From IMG/VR virus record IMGVR_UViG_2617270976_000005, positions 1 to 6,274 of that record: DNA of 6,274 nucleotides; one strand, given 5' to 3'. Origin of the DNA: a virus (Duplodnaviria > Heunggongvirae > Uroviricota > Caudoviricetes). Position numbers and translations under genes: made by a program. Under the pieces are notes generated by a model, which did not search any database, had not been told where the DNA came from, and was given only the letters and a program-made list of their open reading frames with translations. This document shows, piece after piece, positions 1 to 6,274 of this stretch (within the stretch, counting starts at the first letter, position 1; each line of letters opens with the position of its first letter).

Positions 1-1
1 T

Positions 2-397
2 GGTCTGAGAAATGATGCCGGAGAATTGATAGGTGTGGCGACAGCCGGTAGACCTGTTGCACGACATTTGGACGATGGATTAACGCTTGAAGTAAATCGC
101 ACATGTACCACAGGAGAACGCAACGCTAACAGCGCGCTTTATGGTGCTGTCTGGCGGGCAGCAAAGGCTATGGGTTATCAACGTTGTATTACGTACACCC
201 AGGCAGATGAATCAGGAGCATCTCTCCGCGCAGCTGGTTTTGTTCGTGTGAAAGAGCTTCCTCCAAGAAAAAGCTGGGCGGAATCAAGCGTCGCCCTGCG
301 GAGTAAACGCGATCCGGTCGGAAACGGTGGTGTTCCTCGTGTGCTCTGGGAAATCAGGAGAATGAGTACCACTGGCATTCGCATCAAAGGAGAGTGA
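2..397 (+). CDS. Hypothetical phage protein, 5'-partial (frame open to window edge; first in-window starts are TTG 26 / GTG 35)
   Basis: Open frame from position 2 to TGA 395-397, protein-like composition, stop 1 nt before the next ATG (399). No family recognised from memory. Confidence 0.5.
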   Translation, partial: GLRNDAGELIGVATAGRPVARHLDDGLTLEVNRTCTTGERNANSALYGAVWRAAKAMGYQRCITYTQADESGASLRAAGFVRVKELPPRKSWAESSVALRSKRDPVGNGGVPRVLWEIRRMSTTGIRIKGE

Positions 398-398
398 T

Positions 399-662
399 AT
401 GGCAACTTTGACAAAAAAAGAACAAGCATGGTTGAGCGAATTACAGGACGTTCTTGATCGCTGTCCATCACCGAAAAAAATTGGTTTTTACACCATTGGC
501 GATAAAAGCATTTACCTGTATGACCTGCGCCGCATGGATGAAATCATGGAGGCTCTTGATAATCGTTCGTCAATGGATTGGTGTGTTGCTGTCCATGATA
601 TGAATGCAGGGTTTGATGAAAAGATTTTGTTCCCCTCATCAGTTGAAAGCACTGCGGGTTAA
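399..662 (+). CDS. Hypothetical protein, 87 aa
   Basis: ATG 399 preceded by AAGGAG (387-392, 6-nt spacing); tightly coupled to the upstream ORF; provided ORF track. Function unknown. Confidence 0.55.
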   Translation: MATLTKKEQAWLSELQDVLDRCPSPKKIGFYTIGDKSIYLYDLRRMDEIMEALDNRSSMDWCVAVHDMNAGFDEKILFPSSVESTAG

Positions 663-672
663 GGAGTAACAC

Positions 673-978
673 ATGACCACTATTACCAAAGAACGTATTG
701 AATTGTTCATTAAAAACCCGCTTGAAAACGGGCTTACCCGTGGTGAACAAATGGAACTGGCACGGATTGCGCTGGCATCGCTGGCAGCAGAGCCAGCCGG
801 TAAATTGCATGAATACAAACCAGTGGGATATCAGCGTCTGGTCGATGAGTTAACCATGCTGGTAAAGCAGTTAACCTGGCAACTGAGGAAAGCGAAGCCA
901 GACTGCAAATTACCGGATAAGGCGATGAGTTATCTGGAGCGGAACGGACTGATAAGCGTGGAGGATATTTTACGATGA
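673..978 (+). CDS. Hypothetical protein, 101 aa
   Basis: ATG 673 preceded by AAGGAG (661-666) overlapping the upstream stop; ORF track. Function unknown. Confidence 0.6.
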   Translation: MTTITKERIELFIKNPLENGLTRGEQMELARIALASLAAEPAGKLHEYKPVGYQRLVDELTMLVKQLTWQLRKAKPDCKLPDKAMSYLERNGLISVEDILR

Positions 979-1058
979 CCTGGCCTGAAGCATTAACAAC
1001 GGTAGGAATTGCGATGGCGGTGGCGCTGGTGGTGTATTCGATTTGCCGCTGGGGATAA
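975..1058 (+). CDS. Putative 27-aa hydrophobic micro-protein (MTWPEALTTVGIAMAVALVVYSICRWG)
   Basis: ATG 975 overlaps the stop of the preceding ORF (ATGA), GGAGG 11 nt upstream, single predicted transmembrane-like segment. Below the ORF-track size cutoff; my own translation. Confidence 0.25.
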   Translation: MTWPEALTTVGIAMAVALVVYSICRWG

Positions 1059-1065
1059 AAACGGT

Positions 1066-1093
1066 TTGCGGGAAAAGGAGAGTTAAGTAGAAT
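1066..1093 (+). promoter_or_regulatory. Candidate sigma70 promoter for the hok transcript (TTGCGG, 16-nt spacer, TAGAAT)
   Basis: Hexamers read by eye at 1066-1071 and 1088-1093; would give a leader of about 170 nt before hok. Not computed. Confidence 0.2.
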
Positions 1094-1269
1094 TGCAGCG
1101 GGTGCTTGAGGCTATCTGTCTCAGGCATGAACACCAAAAGGCAGATAGAGAAAAGCCCCAGTTAACATTACGCGTCCGGCAAGACGCTTAACATTAATCT
1201 GAGGCCATATCTATGCTCTACACACGTAGGTTAGCCTCTTACGTGCCGAAAGGCAAGGAGAAGCAGGCT

Positions 1270-1425
1270 ATGAAGCAGCAAAAGGCGATGCTAATCGCCC
1301 TGATCGTCATCTGTTTAACCGTCATAGTGACGGCACTGGTAACGAGGAAAGACCTCTGCGAGGTACGAATCCGAACCGGCCAGACGGAGGTCGCTGTCTT
1401 CACAGCTTACGAACCTGAGGAGTAA
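1270..1425 (+). CDS. hokD: Hok/Gef-family type I toxin, 51 aa (membrane-depolarising peptide)
   Basis: Translation MKQQKAMLIALIVICLTVIVTALVTRKDLCEVRIRTGQTEVAVFTAYEPEE matches my recollection of HokD/RelF and is near-identical to Gef. AAGGAG 1255-1260, 9 nt before ATG 1270. An in-frame upstream ATG at 1213 would give a 70-aa form. Confidence 0.85.
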   Translation: MKQQKAMLIALIVICLTVIVTALVTRKDLCEVRIRTGQTEVAVFTAYEPEE

Positions 1426-1494
1426 GAGACCGGGCGGGGGAGAAATCCCTCGCCACCTCTGATGTGTCAGGCATCCTCAACGCACCCGCACTTA

Positions 1495-1521
1495 ACCCGC
1501 TTCGGCGGGTTTTTGTTTTTA
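1495..1521 (+). terminator. Rho-independent terminator downstream of hok
   Basis: ACCCGC / UUCG loop / GCGGGT hairpin followed by TTTTTGTTTTT. Confidence 0.7.
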
Positions 1522-1644
1522 TTTTCAACGCGTTTGAAGTTTTAGATGGTGCCGGAATAGAATCAAAAATACTTAAGTAGCGCGCAGGGAGAAGAGGGAT
1601 GGACCCCGAAGGGGAAGAGCTATTTATCTGGAAGGATTCTGAAG

Positions 1645-1818
1645 ATGAAAATCGAAGAATTACGTGAAATTTTTAGTGAAGATGGCCTCTATGCTGTGCG
1701 CGTTGAGAATGGGGGTATTACCTACACAGCGTTAATTCCTGATGATCATGTAGTGTTATCTGTTGAGGCATTCATTGAATACTTGGAAAGACTCGGTTTC
1801 AAGGTAGTTCGGGAATAA
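1645..1818 (+). CDS. Hypothetical small acidic protein, 57 aa (MKIEELREIFSEDGLYAVRVENGG...)
   Basis: ATG 1645 with AAGGA 8 nt upstream; protein-like composition; my own translation. Not in the ORF track (under cutoff). Confidence 0.4.
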   Translation: MKIEELREIFSEDGLYAVRVENGGITYTALIPDDHVVLSVEAFIEYLERLGFKVVRE

Positions 1819-1826
1819 GTTATAAT
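1797..1826 (+). promoter_or_regulatory. Candidate promoter with consensus -10 TATAAT (1821-1826) and weak -35 (TTTCAA/TTCAAG)
   Basis: Perfect TATAAT hexamer directly after the stop of the 57-aa ORF; the -35 is poor. Confidence 0.3.
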
Positions 1827-1877
1827 ACGTGAGCCAGCCTGAACAACTGGCAACCTGCAGCGCCATTGGAGATGACA

Positions 1878-2138
1878 ATGGCGCATAATTTCAAATTTCG
1901 CAATTCTGATTCTGCCTTTGCCAGCAGGCACGGGTGGCGTTCTCACGCATTCAAATATGACTGGTATCAGCACGATCCCTGTACTGAAGAACAGGCCGAA
2001 TGGCTGATTCATAACTACCGCAGACGTGGATATGAGTTTAGGAAAGCCCTCAGTGGCGCTTATTGTTCGCCAGCAGCGACTGAAATTAAGCCTGTCCGGA
2101 CGGCTGGCAATAAAAATTATTGCAGAGCCACCGGATAA
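1878..2138 (+). CDS. Uncertain ORF, 86 aa; 3' part overlaps rusA out of frame
   Basis: ATG 1878 with GGAG 6 nt upstream; the first ~50 codons look protein-like, the remainder is an alternate-frame read of the RusA-like region. May mark a mosaic junction. Confidence 0.25.
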   Translation: MAHNFKFRNSDSAFASRHGWRSHAFKYDWYQHDPCTEEQAEWLIHNYRRRGYEFRKALSGAYCSPAATEIKPVRTAGNKNYCRATG

Positions 2139-2307
2139 GCGTCGTCGTGACCTGGACAATATTCTGAAAGCACCACTGGATGCGCTGACGCACGCGGGGT
2201 TGTTAATGGACGATGAGCAGTTTGATGAAATCAATATTGTACGTGGCCAGCCAGTATCTGGTGGACGGCTGGAGATAAGAATTACAGAGGTGGGTGTGCA
2301 TGAATAA
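2026..2307 (+). CDS. rusA: RusA-family Holliday-junction resolvase homolog, apparently N-terminally truncated (93 aa versus about 120 aa)
   Basis: ...AEPPDKRRRDLDNILKAPLDALTHAGLLMDDEQ...GGRLEIRITEVG aligns with the catalytic acidic region of E. coli RusA (PDRRRRDLDN...DALTKAG...DD...GGRLELTITEMG) as I recall it. In-frame TGA at 2005-2007 blocks upstream extension, and the GTG/ATG start has no clear RBS. Confidence 0.6.
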   Translation: MDMSLGKPSVALIVRQQRLKLSLSGRLAIKIIAEPPDKRRRDLDNILKAPLDALTHAGLLMDDEQFDEINIVRGQPVSGGRLEIRITEVGVHE

Positions 2308-2989
2308 CCAGTATTTACAGTTTGTTCGTGAGCAACTCATGATTGCCACTGCAGATCTCAGTGGGTCGACAAAATGCCAGCTGGAAGCCTGGCAGGAAAA
2401 TGCCCTGTTCGATACAGGGCGTTACAGACGCAAAAAAATTCGTTACCGCGATGAGGTAACCGGAAAAATGATCACGCGGGATAATCCCCCGATCCAGGGT
2501 AAACAATCACTGGCGAAAGGCTCATCAATTGCGCTGGTCAGTCCTGTTGAGTTTGCAACATCATCGTGGCGGCGTGCCGTTCTGGAACTGGAAGAACATC
2601 AGAAGGCGTGGTTGTTGTGGTGTTATGGCGGAAACATTTGCTGGGAGCATCAGATCGCGATAACGCAGTGGGTGTGGAGTGAATTTAAAACTCAGTCCGG
2701 CTCCAGAAAAATTGCAGTGAAAACGCTGGAGCGTGTGAAGAAGTTGATCTGGCTGGCGGCACAGGATGTCAGAGGATGGGTTACCGGGTGTGAGGTCTAC
2801 CAGAGACAGGAGCTTGCCAGACTGTGTGGAGTTAAGCCTGATAACTGGAGCCATAATTATGCGAACTACTGGCGTGAGATGTGCGATATTTTTAAGCGCC
2901 TCGATAGAGAATCCTTGATTTGCTCCGTGAAAATAAGAGCGCAACAAAAAGCGACCTTTTCACGACGAGATATTGCAAAAGTCAATTAA
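2300..2989 (+). CDS. Putative late-gene antiterminator Q-like protein, 229 aa
   Basis: Call rests mainly on synteny: overlaps the rusA stop, AGAGG RBS, followed by a promoter-like element and strong hairpin terminator, then late cargo. No similarity to lambda Q itself; family assignment would need an HMM search. Confidence 0.55.
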   Translation: MNNQYLQFVREQLMIATADLSGSTKCQLEAWQENALFDTGRYRRKKIRYRDEVTGKMITRDNPPIQGKQSLAKGSSIALVSPVEFATSSWRRAVLELEEHQKAWLLWCYGGNICWEHQIAITQWVWSEFKTQSGSRKIAVKTLERVKKLIWLAAQDVRGWVTGCEVYQRQELARLCGVKPDNWSHNYANYWREMCDIFKRLDRESLICSVKIRAQQKATFSRRDIAKVN

Positions 2990-3010
2990 ATCGCGTATGT
3001 TTCGTATAAA
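2973..3010 (+). promoter_or_regulatory. Candidate late promoter (PR'-like): TTGCAA, 17-nt spacer, TATGTT; alternative -10 TATAAA at 3005-3010
   Basis: Hexamers read by eye, overlapping the 3' end of the Q-like gene, about 45 nt upstream of the hairpin terminator. Confidence 0.2.
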
Positions 3011-3050
3011 TCTGATATTTTGCCGATTTTGTACGTGATGGCAAAGTAAG

Positions 3051-3078
3051 AAAAAACCACCGCCAGGTGGTTTTTTTT
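3051..3078 (+). terminator. Rho-independent terminator (tR'-like), possibly bidirectional
   Basis: AAAAAA-CCACC-gcca-GGTGG-TTTTTTTT: short GC stem flanked by an A-tract and an 8-T tract. Confidence 0.7.
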
Positions 3079-3201
3079 ATGTCCGAAAATCGCGTCAGTA
3101 CAGTAAACGCGCTGGTGGTTGCGAATACGGGTCTTTCAGCTTGCTGGCTTTTTCGACAAGAGTTATTGGTATGTCACGTTAACCGGAAAAGGGAAAAAGA
3201 C

Positions 3202-3399
3202 ATGCTAAAACAGCAGGATATGACAGAAACCGCCAGAGTGGTGTTTAATGAATTAAGCGTTACCGACCCGGCGACAGTCAGGGAGATTGCGCAGAATACT
3301 TACCTTTCACGCGAACGCTGCCAGTTAATACTGACCCAGCTGGTTATGGCGGGTCTGGCAGACTATCAGTTCGGTTGTTACAGACGCCTTCAGTCCTGA
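3202..3399 (+). CDS. Small winged-helix-like DNA-binding protein, 65 aa (possibly PapI/FaeA-like)
   Basis: ATG 3202 with AAAGGGA upstream. The TVREIAQNTYLSRERCQLILTQLVMAGL segment has helix-turn-helix spacing that I can align by eye with PapI ([26 protein letters not shown]). The longer ORF-track version (3067) starts inside the terminator T-tract and was not used. Confidence 0.4.
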   Translation: MLKQQDMTETARVVFNELSVTDPATVREIAQNTYLSRERCQLILTQLVMAGLADYQFGCYRRLQS

Positions 3400-3412
3400 A
3401 GGCTTTTTTATT
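3386..3412 (+). terminator. Hairpin with U-tract overlapping the stop codon of the small wHTH ORF
   Basis: GCCTTCAG-tc-CTGAAGGC followed by TTTTTTATTT. Confidence 0.55.
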
Positions 3413-3550
3413 TGTGGTAAATGGGCGGCTGGTGGGTGTTAGGGGCACTCACCAGCCATCTGCTCATGCGTCCGGATCACAAGCAAACCTCAGGCCCATC
3501 TGCTTTGCGCAAAAGCAGAATGAGCCTATCAGAGACAGGCTTAATGATCC

Positions 3551-4600
3551 ATGTTTAACACTGTAAAAATATCCAGTTGTGAGTTGATCAACGCTGACTG
3601 CCTGGAATTTATCCGGTCGTTACCCGAAAATTCTGTTGACCTGATAGTCACGGACCCGCCGTACTTTAAAGTGAAGCCTGAGGGCTGGGATAACCAGTGG
3701 AAGGGCGACGATGATTACCTGAAGTGGCTGGACCAGTGTCTGGCGCAGTTCTGGCGGGTGCTGAAACCTGCCGGAAGTCTTTACCTGTTCTGTGGCCATC
3801 GCCTGGCGTCTGACATTGAAATCATGATGCGTGAACGCTTCAGTGTGCTGAACCATATTATCTGGGCGAAGCCGTCCGGACGCTGGAACGGGTGCAACAA
3901 GGAAAGCCTGAGGGCATATTTCCCCGCCACAGAGCGCATTCTGTTCGCGGAACATTATCAGGGGCCGTATCGCCCGAAAGATGCCGGGTATGAGGCGAAG
4001 GGCAGGGCACTGAAACAGCATGTGATGGCCCCGCTGATTTCTTACTTTCGTGATGCGCGCGCGGCCCTGGGGATAACGGCAAAACAGATTGCAGATGCCA
4101 CAGGAAAGAAAAACATGGTGTCGCACTGGTTCAGTGCCAGTCAGTGGCAGCTACCGAACGAAAGCGATTATCTGAAATTACAGTCGCTGTTTGCCCGGGT
4201 GGCAGAAGAGAAACATCAGCGCGGTGAACTGGAAAAGCCCCACCACCAGCTGGTGGATACGTATACGTCACTGAACCGGCAGTATGTGGAGCTGCAGAGT
4301 GAATATAAGCATCTGCGGCGGTATTTTGGTGTGACGGCGCAGGTGCCGTACACGGATGTGTGGACACATAAACCGGTGCAGTTCTATCCCGGGAAACATC
4401 CGTGCGAAAAACCGGCAGAAATGCTGCAGCAGATAATCAGCGCAAGCAGTCGTCCGGGTGACCTGGTTGCAGATTTTTTTATGGGCTCAGGTTCAACGGT
4501 AAAAGCGGCACTGGCGCTCGGGCGTCGTGCGATTGGCGTTGAACTGGAGACCGGACGTTTTGAGCAGACAGTCAGGGAAGTTCAGGATTTAATCGTTTGA
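3551..4600 (+). CDS. DNA methyltransferase, N6_N4_Mtase family (beta-class amino-MTase, likely N6-adenine), 349 aa; no adjacent endonuclease
   Basis: N-terminal catalytic motif IV LIVTDPPYF (nt 3653-3664) and C-terminal AdoMet motif I DFFMGSGST, in beta-class order, with a central HTH-like insert (ITAKQIADATGKKNMVSHWF). An in-frame TGA at 3545-3547 fixes the start at ATG 3551; the RBS is weak. Confidence 0.9.
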   Translation: MFNTVKISSCELINADCLEFIRSLPENSVDLIVTDPPYFKVKPEGWDNQWKGDDDYLKWLDQCLAQFWRVLKPAGSLYLFCGHRLASDIEIMMRERFSVLNHIIWAKPSGRWNGCNKESLRAYFPATERILFAEHYQGPYRPKDAGYEAKGRALKQHVMAPLISYFRDARAALGITAKQIADATGKKNMVSHWFSASQWQLPNESDYLKLQSLFARVAEEKHQRGELEKPHHQLVDTYTSLNRQYVELQSEYKHLRRYFGVTAQVPYTDVWTHKPVQFYPGKHPCEKPAEMLQQIISASSRPGDLVADFFMGSGSTVKAALALGRRAIGVELETGRFEQTVREVQDLIV

Positions 4601-4611
4601 AACGGATGAGA

Positions 4612-4641
4612 TTGCAGAATTAATTACGCACCATTATTATT
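4612..4641 (+). promoter_or_regulatory. Candidate promoter for the tRNA cluster (TTGCAG, 17-nt spacer, TATTAT)
   Basis: Hexamers at 4612-4617 and 4635-4640 place a start site about 2 nt before the first tRNA. Confidence 0.35.
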
Positions 4642-4649
4642 CTGCTTCC

Positions 4650-4725
4650 GGCCCTTTAGCTCAGTGGTGAGAGCGAGCGACTCATAATCGCCAGGTCGCT
4701 GGTTCAAATCCAGCAAGGGCCACCA
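4650..4725 (+). tRNA. tRNA with CAU anticodon, most likely tRNA-Ile2 (lysidine type, ileX/ileZ-like); tRNA-Met not excluded
   Basis: Manual cloverleaf: acceptor GGCCCTT/AAGGGCC, D-arm GCTC/GAGC, anticodon loop CUCAUAA, T-loop TTCAAAT, encoded CCA. Close to E. coli ileX as I recall it. Confidence 0.85.
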
Positions 4726-4732
4726 TCACAAA

Positions 4733-4812
4733 CCGCCATTAGCTTATCAGGAAGAGCAGACGACACGATAACAGGGTTGTTGGTGCGGGGGCGGGTCCCC
4801 GATGGCGGTCCA
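4733..4812 (+). pseudogene. Degenerate tRNA-like relic between the two tRNAs
   Basis: Perfect 7-bp acceptor stem CCGCCAT/ATGGCGG, then the same TA + GCT(T) start of the D-arm as the flanking tRNAs, a discriminator and CCA; but no foldable anticodon arm and a non-canonical 6-nt T-loop (GCGGGT). Confidence 0.3.
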
Positions 4813-4825
4813 TTATCGGTATTCA

Positions 4826-4902
4826 GCGTTGTTAGCTCAGCCGGACAGAGCAATTGCCTTCTAAGCAATCGGTCACTGGTTCGAATCCAGTACAGCGCGC
4901 CA
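4826..4902 (+). tRNA. tRNA-Arg, anticodon UCU (reads AGA, and AGG by wobble)
   Basis: Manual cloverleaf: acceptor GCGTTGT/ACAGCGC (one G-U pair), D-arm GCTC/GAGC, anticodon stem ATTGC/GCAAT with loop CUUCUAA, T-loop TTCGAAT, encoded CCA. Confidence 0.9.
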
Positions 4903-5009
4903 TATTCATTCTTCCAGATTCCTTTCGGCAGAGCCTTATACTGAAATATACCTGGCTCAGGATATTGTTGAAAATATTATATGTTTGTCAAAAATAAAAG
5001 TTCTGTTAA

Positions 5010-5366
5010 GTGTTGATTGAGTGTTTGTTATACGGTCTAATGGTTTTTTCAGCATTAAATATTTATCATTCATATGGTGTGGGTAGAGTGAATATTGATG
5101 AGGCGTCGGGGTGTTTCATCCTTAGGCAGCGTATTGATATAGTCAATGCAGAACGAGCAAAGGCCTTCAGCCGTTTGACAGTTTTGTTCTGTACTCCTGA
5201 TCGTCTTTCGGGAAGAGACGTTATTATTCTGAATAGTGATGCTATACAGAGGGTTTGCGATGAGTTCATGGTGGCTAATTCAGAATTATTTGCTCTTGTT
5301 CAGGAGTACAACAGAATAGCCAGGACCTGTGGTATGGATGAACTTCGGATTACTCATCTGGGGTAG
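5010..5366 (+). CDS. Hypothetical protein in an AT-rich cargo region, 108-118 aa depending on start (GTG 5010 or ATG 5040)
   Basis: ORF track. Composition is more protein-like than the overlapping antisense frame, but neither start has a convincing RBS. No family recognised. Confidence 0.3.
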   Translation: MLIECLLYGLMVFSALNIYHSYGVGRVNIDEASGCFILRQRIDIVNAERAKAFSRLTVLFCTPDRLSGRDVIILNSDAIQRVCDEFMVANSELFALVQEYNRIARTCGMDELRITHLG

Positions 5367-5446
5367 ATACATATCTGGATTATCACCGGTTACGGTAAAA
5401 AGTGATTGCTTACTGTTTTTGTGAATGGCATTGCAGCAGCCGGATA

Positions 5447-5533
5447 ATGTCAGTGCTGGCTGACGGTGTGCTGGTGGCGGGTGTGGTGGTTGCTGCTTTC
5501 CCGTTGCTGAAAAAGAAAACGCTAGACTGTTAG
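5447..5533 (+). CDS. Speculative 28-aa hydrophobic peptide (MSVLADGVLVAGVVVAAFPLLKKKTLDC)
   Basis: My own translation; single hydrophobic stretch with C-terminal KKK. Weak RBS; an in-frame GTG at 5402 would give 44 aa. May be a chance ORF in GT-rich sequence. Confidence 0.15.
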   Translation: MSVLADGVLVAGVVVAAFPLLKKKTLDC

Positions 5534-5757
5534 CCGGGTATCAGTTAGCGGGAGAAATTTTTAAATACTTCACAATTCAGGCGGTTGACTGTTGTCTGGT
5601 TTGCGGGGAGTTTGTTAAAAGAAACTGGCATGGTGAATCCCCCTGTGCGGAGGGGCAATCAGCGAGTAGGTATATGGGATAATCGCGGATTCAGGTGCTG
5701 GTACTGAATTCACCGGGAGGCACCCGGCACCATGCAATGGCACATAGCGCCACTCTC

Positions 5758-5788
5758 CAGCCCCTCTCCGGAGGGGCTGTTTATATTG
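5758..5788 (+). terminator. Strong rho-independent terminator
   Basis: Perfect 9-bp GC-rich stem CAGCCCCTC / tccg / GAGGGGCTG followed by TTTATATTGATTTT. Confidence 0.6.
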
Positions 5789-5810
5789 ATTTTGTCAGAT
5801 GTGAGTAAAC

Positions 5811-5844
5811 TCCTTATGGACTTTGTTGTTTTAGTCCATAAGGA
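5811..5844. repeat. Perfect 12-bp inverted repeat with 10-nt spacer (TCCTTATGGACT-n10-AGTCCATAAGGA)
   Basis: Read directly from the sequence; no U-tract follows on either strand, so more likely an operator or RNA structure than a terminator. Confidence 0.6.
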
Positions 5845-5896
5845 CATATTTGCAGAGTGCAACGGTTATTAAAGCATTCATTCAATACGTTATCTG

Positions 5897-6274
5897 GGTG
5901 ATGCTGCCAACTTACTGATTTAGTGTATGATGGTGTTTTTGAGGTGCTCCAGTGGCTTCTGTTTCTATCAGCTGTCCCTCCTGTTCAGCTACTGACGGGG
6001 TGGTGCGTAACGGCAAAAGCACCGCCGGACATCAGCGCTATCTCTGCTCTCACTGCCGTAAAACATGGCAACTGCAGTTCACTTACACCGCTTCTCAACC
6101 CGGTACGCACCAGAAAATCATTGATATGGCCATGAATGGCGTTGGATGCCGGGCAACAGCCCGCATTATGGGCGTTGGCCTCAACACGATTTTACGTCAC
6201 TTAAAAAACTCAGGCCGCAGTCGGTAACCTCGCGCATACAGCCGGGCAGTGACGTCATCGTCTGCGCGGAAATG
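5897..6274 (+). mobile_element. IS1 insertion sequence, left end and first 378 bp (continues past the window)
   Basis: Left terminal inverted repeat GGTGATGCTGCCAACTTACTGAT at 5897-5919, and insA at the expected offset (IS1 nt 56). Confidence 0.95.
5952..6227 (+). CDS. insA: IS1 InsA (transposition repressor / N-terminal part of the InsAB' transposase), 91 aa
   Basis: Translation [43 protein letters not shown]...LKNSGRSR matches IS1 InsA as I recall it. Confidence 0.95.

Follow-up and report, generated by a model that had tools for sequence, protein, structure and literature searches.

A small conserved gene of probable moron character in the stx2AB slot of a lambdoid prophage

The window, i.e., the whole analyzed stretch of 6,274 nt (positions 1 to 6,274 of the IMG/VR record IMGVR_UViG_2617270976_000005), represents the part of a lambdoid prophage that carries late regulators and cargo. 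Its annotated features, with coordinates counted from the first nucleotide of the window, are as follows.

1100–1425: hok/sok type I toxin–antitoxin module, upstream of the RusA–Q block (Rfam sok at 1100–1275, 117 bits; hok-like ORF at 1213–1425)
Between the hok/sok module and Q: RusA
2294–2989, + strand: Q antiterminator (Pfam PF06323, E 4.8e-82), the presumed driver of read-through into the cargo
2973–3080, + strand: candidate late promoter pR' with the tR' hairpin (TTGCAA-17-TATGTT or TCAATT-17-TATAAA, by direct reading of the sequence)
3051–3076: the tR' hairpin itself, strong and bidirectional, with a T run (terminator scan)
Between the tR' hairpin and the methyltransferase: small winged-helix-like ORF
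3551–4600, + strand: N6/N4 DNA methyltransferase (Pfam PF01555, E 2.2e-44), common to Stx2 phages
4650–4725, + strand: tRNA with a CAT anticodon, ileZ-like (ARAGORN, Rfam; annotated as tRNA-Ile in O104:H4 and Stx2a_1447)
4826–4902, + strand: tRNA-Arg(tct), argO-like, left flank of the slot (ARAGORN; Rfam tRNA, 68 bits; aligns with argO of Stx2a_1447)
4903–5087, + strand: AT-rich cargo leader (GC 0.315), with the left recombination boundary with Stx phages at about 4915
5010–5087, + strand: in-frame 5' extension of ORF92, the source of the 118-aa and 108-aa readings, probably untranslated leader
5088–5366, + strand: ORF92, a 92-codon CDS with a GTG start and a TAG stop at 5364–5366, member of PHROG 2873/4827
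5402–5533, + strand: second cargo gene, encoding a DUF3927/TciB-like small membrane protein (Pfam PF13064, E 2.3e-25; PHROG 1470)
5599–5788, + strand: full-length STnc100-family sRNA, right flank of the slot (Rfam RF02076, 132.4 bits, E 6.8e-30)
5814–5896, − strand: last 26 codons of an iraM-like anti-adaptor gene, cut by IS1 (intact form of 111 aa in O104:H4, WP_000871291.1)
5897–6274: left end of IS1, starting at 5897, with insA at 5952–6227

The tR' hairpin reads AAAAAACCACC-TGGC-GGTGGTTTTTT. Together with the probable pR', it would yield a short leader RNA of the 6S/StxS/IsrK type; the isrK-like Rfam match over 2973–3080 was weak (19 bits, below threshold), and a Phe-leader match was likewise below threshold. 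Between the two tRNA genes, at 4726–4825, the middle member of an ileZ–argN–argO trio has decayed: some 40 nt in the body of argN are exchanged or scrambled, and no tRNA was detected within this interval by ARAGORN. The same two-tRNA arrangement is present in E2348/69; O104:H4 and the Stx2 phages keep all three tRNAs. On the other side of the cargo, the STnc100-family sRNA ends in a terminator hairpin at 5758–5779 (terminator scan), and a 2026 preprint (10.64898/2026.05.13.724894) links STnc100 to the PasD sRNAs of EPEC. In both O104:H4 and E2348/69, PGAP places a pseudo 'hypothetical protein' over the STnc100-like sRNA on the opposite strand.

The segment at 4903–5366 had been singled out in the original prediction as AT-rich cargo carried directly behind the Q, methyltransferase and tRNA genes, at the site where Shiga-toxin phages carry stxAB. 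Both the composition and the placement were confirmed: the GC content falls to 0.315 at 4901–5100 and lies at 0.395–0.435 over 5001–5400, against 0.51–0.55 in the methylase and tRNA block (flanks about 52%), and Q, the methylase and two tRNAs lie immediately upstream. The position itself could be defined by comparison with the Stx2a phage 1447 (Sawaravirus), with which the window aligns at 92% from 3053 to 4915 through the methylase (92–94% identical in that region), ileZ, argN and argO. This alignment ends 13 nt past argO, and blastn homology returns only at 5570–5795 (L013 7729–7981), just downstream of stx2B, so that the interval 4916–5569 (654 bp) takes the place occupied in phage 1447 by the 1365 bp stx2AB segment. 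Homology with the Stx2 phages thus resumes at the STnc100-like sRNA. The flanks therefore align on both sides of stx2AB, as the original prediction would have it, and the comparison of the locus in related prophages that had been proposed with it found the slot filled by stx2AB in Stx2a_1447 and empty in phi296, a stx-less Traversvirus in which the STnc100-like element lies within 66 nt of argO.

The stx2AB cassette of phages such as Stx2a_1447 is framed by the methylase, ileZ, argN and argO on the left and by the STnc100-like element, nanS-p and a holin on the right; it has the same strand, and its upstream late leader is 92% identical. The claim that a single ORF fills the slot did not stand, as two genes are present, ORF92 and DUF3927. 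The latter follows ORF92 in 74 of the 76 IMG/VR loci and is annotated by PGAP in O104:H4. We propose that 4916–5569 constitutes a two-gene accessory ("moron") cassette composed of ORF92 and the DUF3927/TciB-like gene, and that this cassette fills a variable late-operon slot bounded by phage tRNAs (ileZ, decayed argN, argO) on the left and by the STnc100-family sRNA on the right.

Classical lambdoid late-region morons, as defined by Hendrix and colleagues, include bor, lom and other genes between Q and S. ORF92 resembles them in being an extra gene that is absent from some related phages, has a deviant AT-rich composition and is inserted between conserved late-operon blocks. It differs in that neither a clear dedicated promoter nor a terminator immediately behind ORF92 is seen in the window; moreover, bor and lom encode envelope proteins, whereas the ORF92 product is predicted to be cytoplasmic. 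On balance, the designation of ORF92 as a moron is very probably correct.

The original prediction had also described an ORF of 108–118 aa. An open frame at 5010–5366 indeed exists, giving 118 aa from GTG 5010 or 108 aa from ATG 5040, but the conserved product is the 92-aa form that begins at GTG 5088. Of 2000 mononucleotide shuffles of 4903–5400, 20 contained a stop-free run of 118 codons or more, and ORF length alone is therefore only mildly unusual; it is the comparative evidence that makes the gene real. A database search identified two further E. coli clades with approximately 57–64% amino-acid identity to the window protein. In codon alignments of the three E. coli clades (68–72% nucleotide identity), no indel was found over the 92 codons, differences were distributed as 24/21/42 over codon positions 1/2/3, and NG86 dN/dS was 0.24–0.27. 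Near-identical copies in IMG/VR were intact in 80 of 80 cases, and their eight polymorphic sites (1/1/6 by codon position) comprised six synonymous and three non-synonymous changes. These patterns argue that ORF92 is, with little room for doubt, a genuine protein-coding gene under purifying selection. The suggestion that the region might be unconserved did not hold for 5088–5366, given this dN/dS and homologues across six genera.

Several lines of comparison place the real start at GTG 5088 and leave the 108-aa and 118-aa forms as unsupported 5' extensions. The GTG at 5010 is replaced by GTA in E2348/69 and in phage mEp460, frame-breaking indels separate the clades upstream of 5088 (relative to L009/L011), and the residues encoded by 5010–5087 are not conserved beyond the near-identical clade. 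The distant homologues all start with the residue equivalent to GTG 5088, and in the ETEC4075 orthologue (WP_001017777.1, 92 aa) PGAP sets the start exactly at this position. Shine–Dalgarno-like purines are located 6–11 nt upstream of the equivalent start in every lineage, ranging from AGGAG in ETEC4075 to only a weak GGGT in the window, and within the leader (4903–5087) only the last 45–75 nt are conserved between clades. In some copies of the L009 clade (L003–L008), an IS3-family element is inserted just upstream and has replaced the 5' leader, which creates a chimeric 119-aa reading (P0017) and leaves the 92-codon core untouched. Within ORF92, at 5202–5220 (+ strand), there is a terminator-like hairpin followed by a T-rich tail, probably a chance match.

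The RefSeq annotation implies a different view of the locus, that of a frame open by chance within a non-coding leader or RNA element. No PGAP feature is present at this site in O104:H4, in E2348/69 or in any listed genome of the two commonest clades; the GTG start and the weak Shine–Dalgarno sequence are consistent with this, as is the occurrence of equally long stop-free runs in 1% of shuffles. Nevertheless, an accidental frame would not be expected to show a gapless alignment with a dN/dS of 0.24–0.27 and an excess of third-position changes, nor to have homologues of constant length in six genera and a confident AlphaFold2 fold. PGAP itself calls the orthologue where the Shine–Dalgarno sequence is AGGAG, and the leader, viewed as a possible non-coding RNA at 4903–5100, gave no Rfam match and no significant structure (fold z −1.19). 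We regard the absence of a gene as highly improbable.

The sequence had been described as unrecognized. This is accurate in that the protein has no assigned function and no match in Pfam, NCBIfam, PADLOC or PDB, but it does match PHROG 2873, and roughly one in four complete E. coli genomes encodes it. The 118-aa frame matched the PHROG 2873 profile with E 1.7e-70 (residues 11–118 covering profile positions 1–108) and the 92-aa form with E 2.5e-58; PHROG 4827 was matched with E 1.2e-5 by the window protein and down to 2.5e-16 by its relatives. Among the nine family members scanned, all nine matched PHROG 2873 and eight matched PHROG 4827. Both are function-less groups without structure or literature, and the 108-position profile of PHROG 2873 takes in a 16-residue N-terminal extension, against the translation of which our comparative data argue. 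Profile searches identified homologues of 91–110 aa in prophages of Citrobacter, Salmonella, Serratia, Morganella and Xenorhabdus, and conserved positions in the family are C9, L12, R23, N64, E66, V71, N75 and A78. Scans of ORF92 and nine family members against Pfam, NCBIfam and PADLOC gave nothing above noise: PADLOC assigned no family to the window protein and one weak match (HEC-06, E 0.009) to one of the nine members. A PDB sequence profile search with ORF92 returned nothing below E 0.3, an exact-sequence look-up of P0013 returned no record, a scan of genome contigs recovered only the E. coli representative, and literature searches on the protein accession, Sb55, the PHROG identifiers and the tRNA gene names yielded nothing relevant.

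ORF92 was detected in 1312 of 5426 complete E. coli genomes (24%), with at least 95% identity in 1185 and at least 80% coverage in 1303 of the carriers. These include O104:H4 outbreak strains and EPEC E2348/69, and extend to human, animal, wastewater and river isolates. Among isolated phages, tblastn matches to the family were limited to mEp460_ev081 and three Salmonella phages of the ST64B type (ST64B, S.Typ Adana and As1), and the family is thus mainly a prophage gene. The annotation of matching loci was checked in 78 listed rows, drawn from about 1185 complete genomes of the window clade and 80 of the L009 clade: no RefSeq feature lay under the match in any of 38 listed near-identical (at least 98%) copies of the window clade or in any of 40 sampled copies of the L009-type clade. 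A gene of the ORF92 family was annotated by RefSeq/PGAP only in the clade with the AGGAG Shine–Dalgarno sequence, and the gap is probably due to the combination of a weak Shine–Dalgarno sequence and a GTG start.

The context of the gene is similar across several genera. In Citrobacter, Serratia and Morganella prophages it is encoded on the late strand, after Q and before the holin and endolysin genes, often with phage tRNAs or the same methylase upstream. The Q proteins that precede it belong to three unrelated families, PF06530, PF03589 and, in E. coli, PF06323. The Citrobacter homologue is followed by a TerB-like gene and then by DUF3927, echoing the window, with two holins beyond, and in the L009 E. 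coli clade the gene is located after a prophage AraC-like regulator. ST64B encodes a distant, uncharacterized family member of about 100 aa, Sb55 (33% identity, E 6e-8, in tblastn with the Serratia member P0041), which is also in the late region but lies behind the lysis cassette, after the spanin, adjoining an HNH endonuclease and the terminase. A clade with a 91-aa product (P0037; 46 contigs) is carried by E. coli Rep3 plasmids, away from any late operon, with the gene at 6001–6276 (L017–L019); a PapB-regulated K88-like fimbrial operon lies on one side of it and a cation-efflux gene on the other. As judged from these arrangements, the family has no exclusive tie to the stx slot: several genera carry it between Q and their lysis genes, ST64B carries it behind the lysis genes, and it also occurs on plasmids.

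AlphaFold2 modeling of ORF92 gave a pLDDT of 83.8 with 8 sequences and of 87.8 (pTM 0.75) with 22 sequences. The model comprises a helix at 3–33, a loop at 34–49 with a conserved TPDR motif, a second helix at 50–81 and a short C-terminal tail, strand-like and with an alternating hydrophobic pattern. The protein is accordingly predicted to be soluble and cytoplasmic, forming one long antiparallel two-helix hairpin with the TPDR loop at its tip. Fold searches with this model returned only generic hairpins; prefoldin beta-type subunits and other helix-loop-helix hairpin proteins, such as the TraM anti-activator and the hairpins of membrane-fusion proteins, are among the nearest known systems. The N-terminus, MNIDEASGCFILRQRIDIV, contains no hydrophobic signal sequence as judged by reading rather than by a dedicated predictor, and no transmembrane segment or catalytic motif is visible. 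Thus, the profile and structure-prediction searches suggested with the original prediction produced a PHROG 2873 match, a confident AlphaFold2 hairpin and generic fold matches. A DNA mimic or anti-restriction role was considered and rejected on account of a family pI ranging from 4.9 to 9.9. With respect to the IraM-type anti-adaptors, BLASTP (E up to 100) produced no alignment with the prophage IraM-like protein WP_000871291.1.

The location in the stx slot invites the idea of a toxin-like or otherwise secreted virulence cargo replacing Stx, or of a rearrangement-derived fragment of a known gene; the position is all that favors it. The absence of any resemblance to the Stx subunits, noted in the original prediction, was borne out by BLASTP, which gave E 16 against Stx2A and no alignment against Stx2B. 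Unlike the secreted AB5 toxin, the unrelated ORF92 product is a predicted 92-aa cytoplasmic hairpin without signal peptide or membrane segment. Nor is the gene a disrupted fragment of a known one, as it belongs to a full-length family of consistent size without a Pfam domain, and its presence in Serratia, Morganella and Citrobacter prophages and in many kinds of E. coli isolates also stands against a virulence cargo. We find this explanation barely credible.

With regard to expression, neither a promoter scan nor a custom scan of eight loci revealed a convincing sigma-70 promoter for ORF92, i.e., a pair of good hexamers. The three E. coli clades share a −10-like hexamer (TATCAT or TATAAT) 20–24 nt ahead of the start, and Serratia and Morganella have TATAAT/TACAAT 37 nt upstream of the gene; no −35 element accompanies any of these hexamers. 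In the window, no terminator separates ORF92 from DUF3927, and intrinsic terminators lie directly after the gene in L014, L020, L022 and L025. A coordinate search of the EPEC E2348/69 RIL-seq supplements, in the portion available to us, found nothing at the ORF92 coordinates. The expression of stx2 depends on Q and pR', and the leader upstream of ORF92 (3053–4915) is 92% identical to the Stx2-phage leader that serves stx2 expression. Because of the lack of a convincing promoter of its own and the location on the late strand, we infer that most ORF92 transcription would come from pR' read-through after Q synthesis, i.e., on prophage induction, and would also cover the tRNAs and lysis genes. By synteny with the Stx2 phages, Q-dependent expression is somewhat favored. 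Since the protein has no catalytic motif, signal peptide or membrane segment, it most likely acts stoichiometrically, the helical hairpin binding a host or phage protein; we put the odds that it is a small protein-binding factor at about even.

Taken as a whole, the best explanation, to which we assign a probability of roughly 0.6, is that ORF92 is an ordinary late-operon moron, expressed by Q-dependent read-through and encoding a cytoplasmic protein-binding product. Counted against it are the omission of the gene by PGAP in the two commonest clades, the weak GGGT Shine–Dalgarno sequence and the GTG start, as well as the plasmid clade that lies off the late operon and the ST64B homologue behind the lysis genes. 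The main rival, which we hold to be unlikely, is that of a lysogenic-conversion moron, transcribed in the uninduced prophage from a weak or activator-dependent promoter of its own, with Q read-through incidental and a benefit to the host such as superinfection exclusion, anti-phage or anti-plasmid action, or stress tolerance. The conserved −10-like hexamers, at 20–24 nt in the three E. coli clades and 37 nt in Serratia and Morganella, together with the terminators right behind the gene in the four lineages named above, would fit an independently transcribed moron expressed in the lysogen. The AT-rich cassette, unlike its flanks in composition, agrees with this, as does the retention of an intact gene in degraded prophages (ETEC4075), on Rep3 plasmids and, at 80% coverage or more, in 1303 of 1312 genomes. 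However, none of the hexamers has a −35 element, the ORF92–DUF3927 junction in the window lacks a terminator, and the PADLOC defense match is limited to a single weak one in one member.

The proximity to lysis genes in other genera raises an alternative that we regard as very unlikely, namely that ORF92 is a lysis-timing accessory, a small cytoplasmic helical protein that might modulate a holin or antiholin. T4 RIII is the analogue of such a role, and no homology is claimed. In Morganella, the gene directly precedes the holin; in Serratia, two small unnamed ORFs separate it from the lysozyme, and in both it heads the protein genes that follow Q, the methylase or the tRNAs; in Citrobacter only the TerB-like and DUF3927 genes stand between it and the two holins. 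In E. coli, by contrast, the holin is more than 3 kb away, beyond DUF3927, the sRNA, iraM and nanS-p; the ST64B homologue follows the spanin, the plasmid clade has no lysis genes nearby, and the holins accompanying the gene belong to unrelated families (PF16931, PF05449 and PF04971). A bolder and distinctly doubtful proposal is that ORF92 founds an unrecognized class of small helical-hairpin effectors that would head the Q-controlled late transcript of Enterobacterales lambdoid prophages, in the slot used elsewhere for Shiga toxin, and would bind and reprogram a specific host machine on induction. Candidate targets would include protease adaptors, RNA polymerase and factors linked to tRNA or translation, in view of the recurrent placement beside phage tRNAs. 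If true, ORF92 would be a widespread means of host manipulation coupled to induction, carried by roughly one in four E. coli genomes and invisible in RefSeq annotation.

Our preferred explanation of an ordinary late-operon moron is more modest, and nothing that we found points to a toxin or a new mechanism. The PHROG family was already catalogued, without a function, and the slot is a known hot spot; against this background, ORF92 is an ordinary moron and not a toxin analogue. What the analysis contributes is the corrected gene model, the exact slot boundaries, the predicted fold, the taxonomic range and the systematic omission from RefSeq. As the region between Q and the lysis genes carries induction-coupled cargo such as Shiga toxin, any conserved gene at this site is a candidate for altering host physiology during induction. 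Pan-genome, GWAS and transcriptome studies based on annotated CDSs would miss ORF92, since RefSeq omits it in the two commonest clades. The immediate value of the analysis lies in an annotation fix, a 92-aa CDS with a GTG start, and in a defined target for deletion and interaction experiments.

Two further observations concern the surroundings of the gene. In the plasmid contig L017, a tRNA-Thr-like sequence is located about 580 nt upstream of the family gene, and the arrangement looks like a captured phage fragment. Behind the ORF92 homologues in Citrobacter, ETEC4075 and Morganella lies a hairpin of the GGCTCGCTACGGCGGGCCTTTTT type (L014 6330–6360, L025 5345–5365 and L022 6305–6330), which resembles the hairpin found in Stx2a_1447 directly after argO and before stx2A (compared site, L013 6365–6395). 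Judging by this resemblance, the GGCTCGCTACGGCGGGCCTTTTT-type hairpin may mark the slot border as a common site of recombination or termination.
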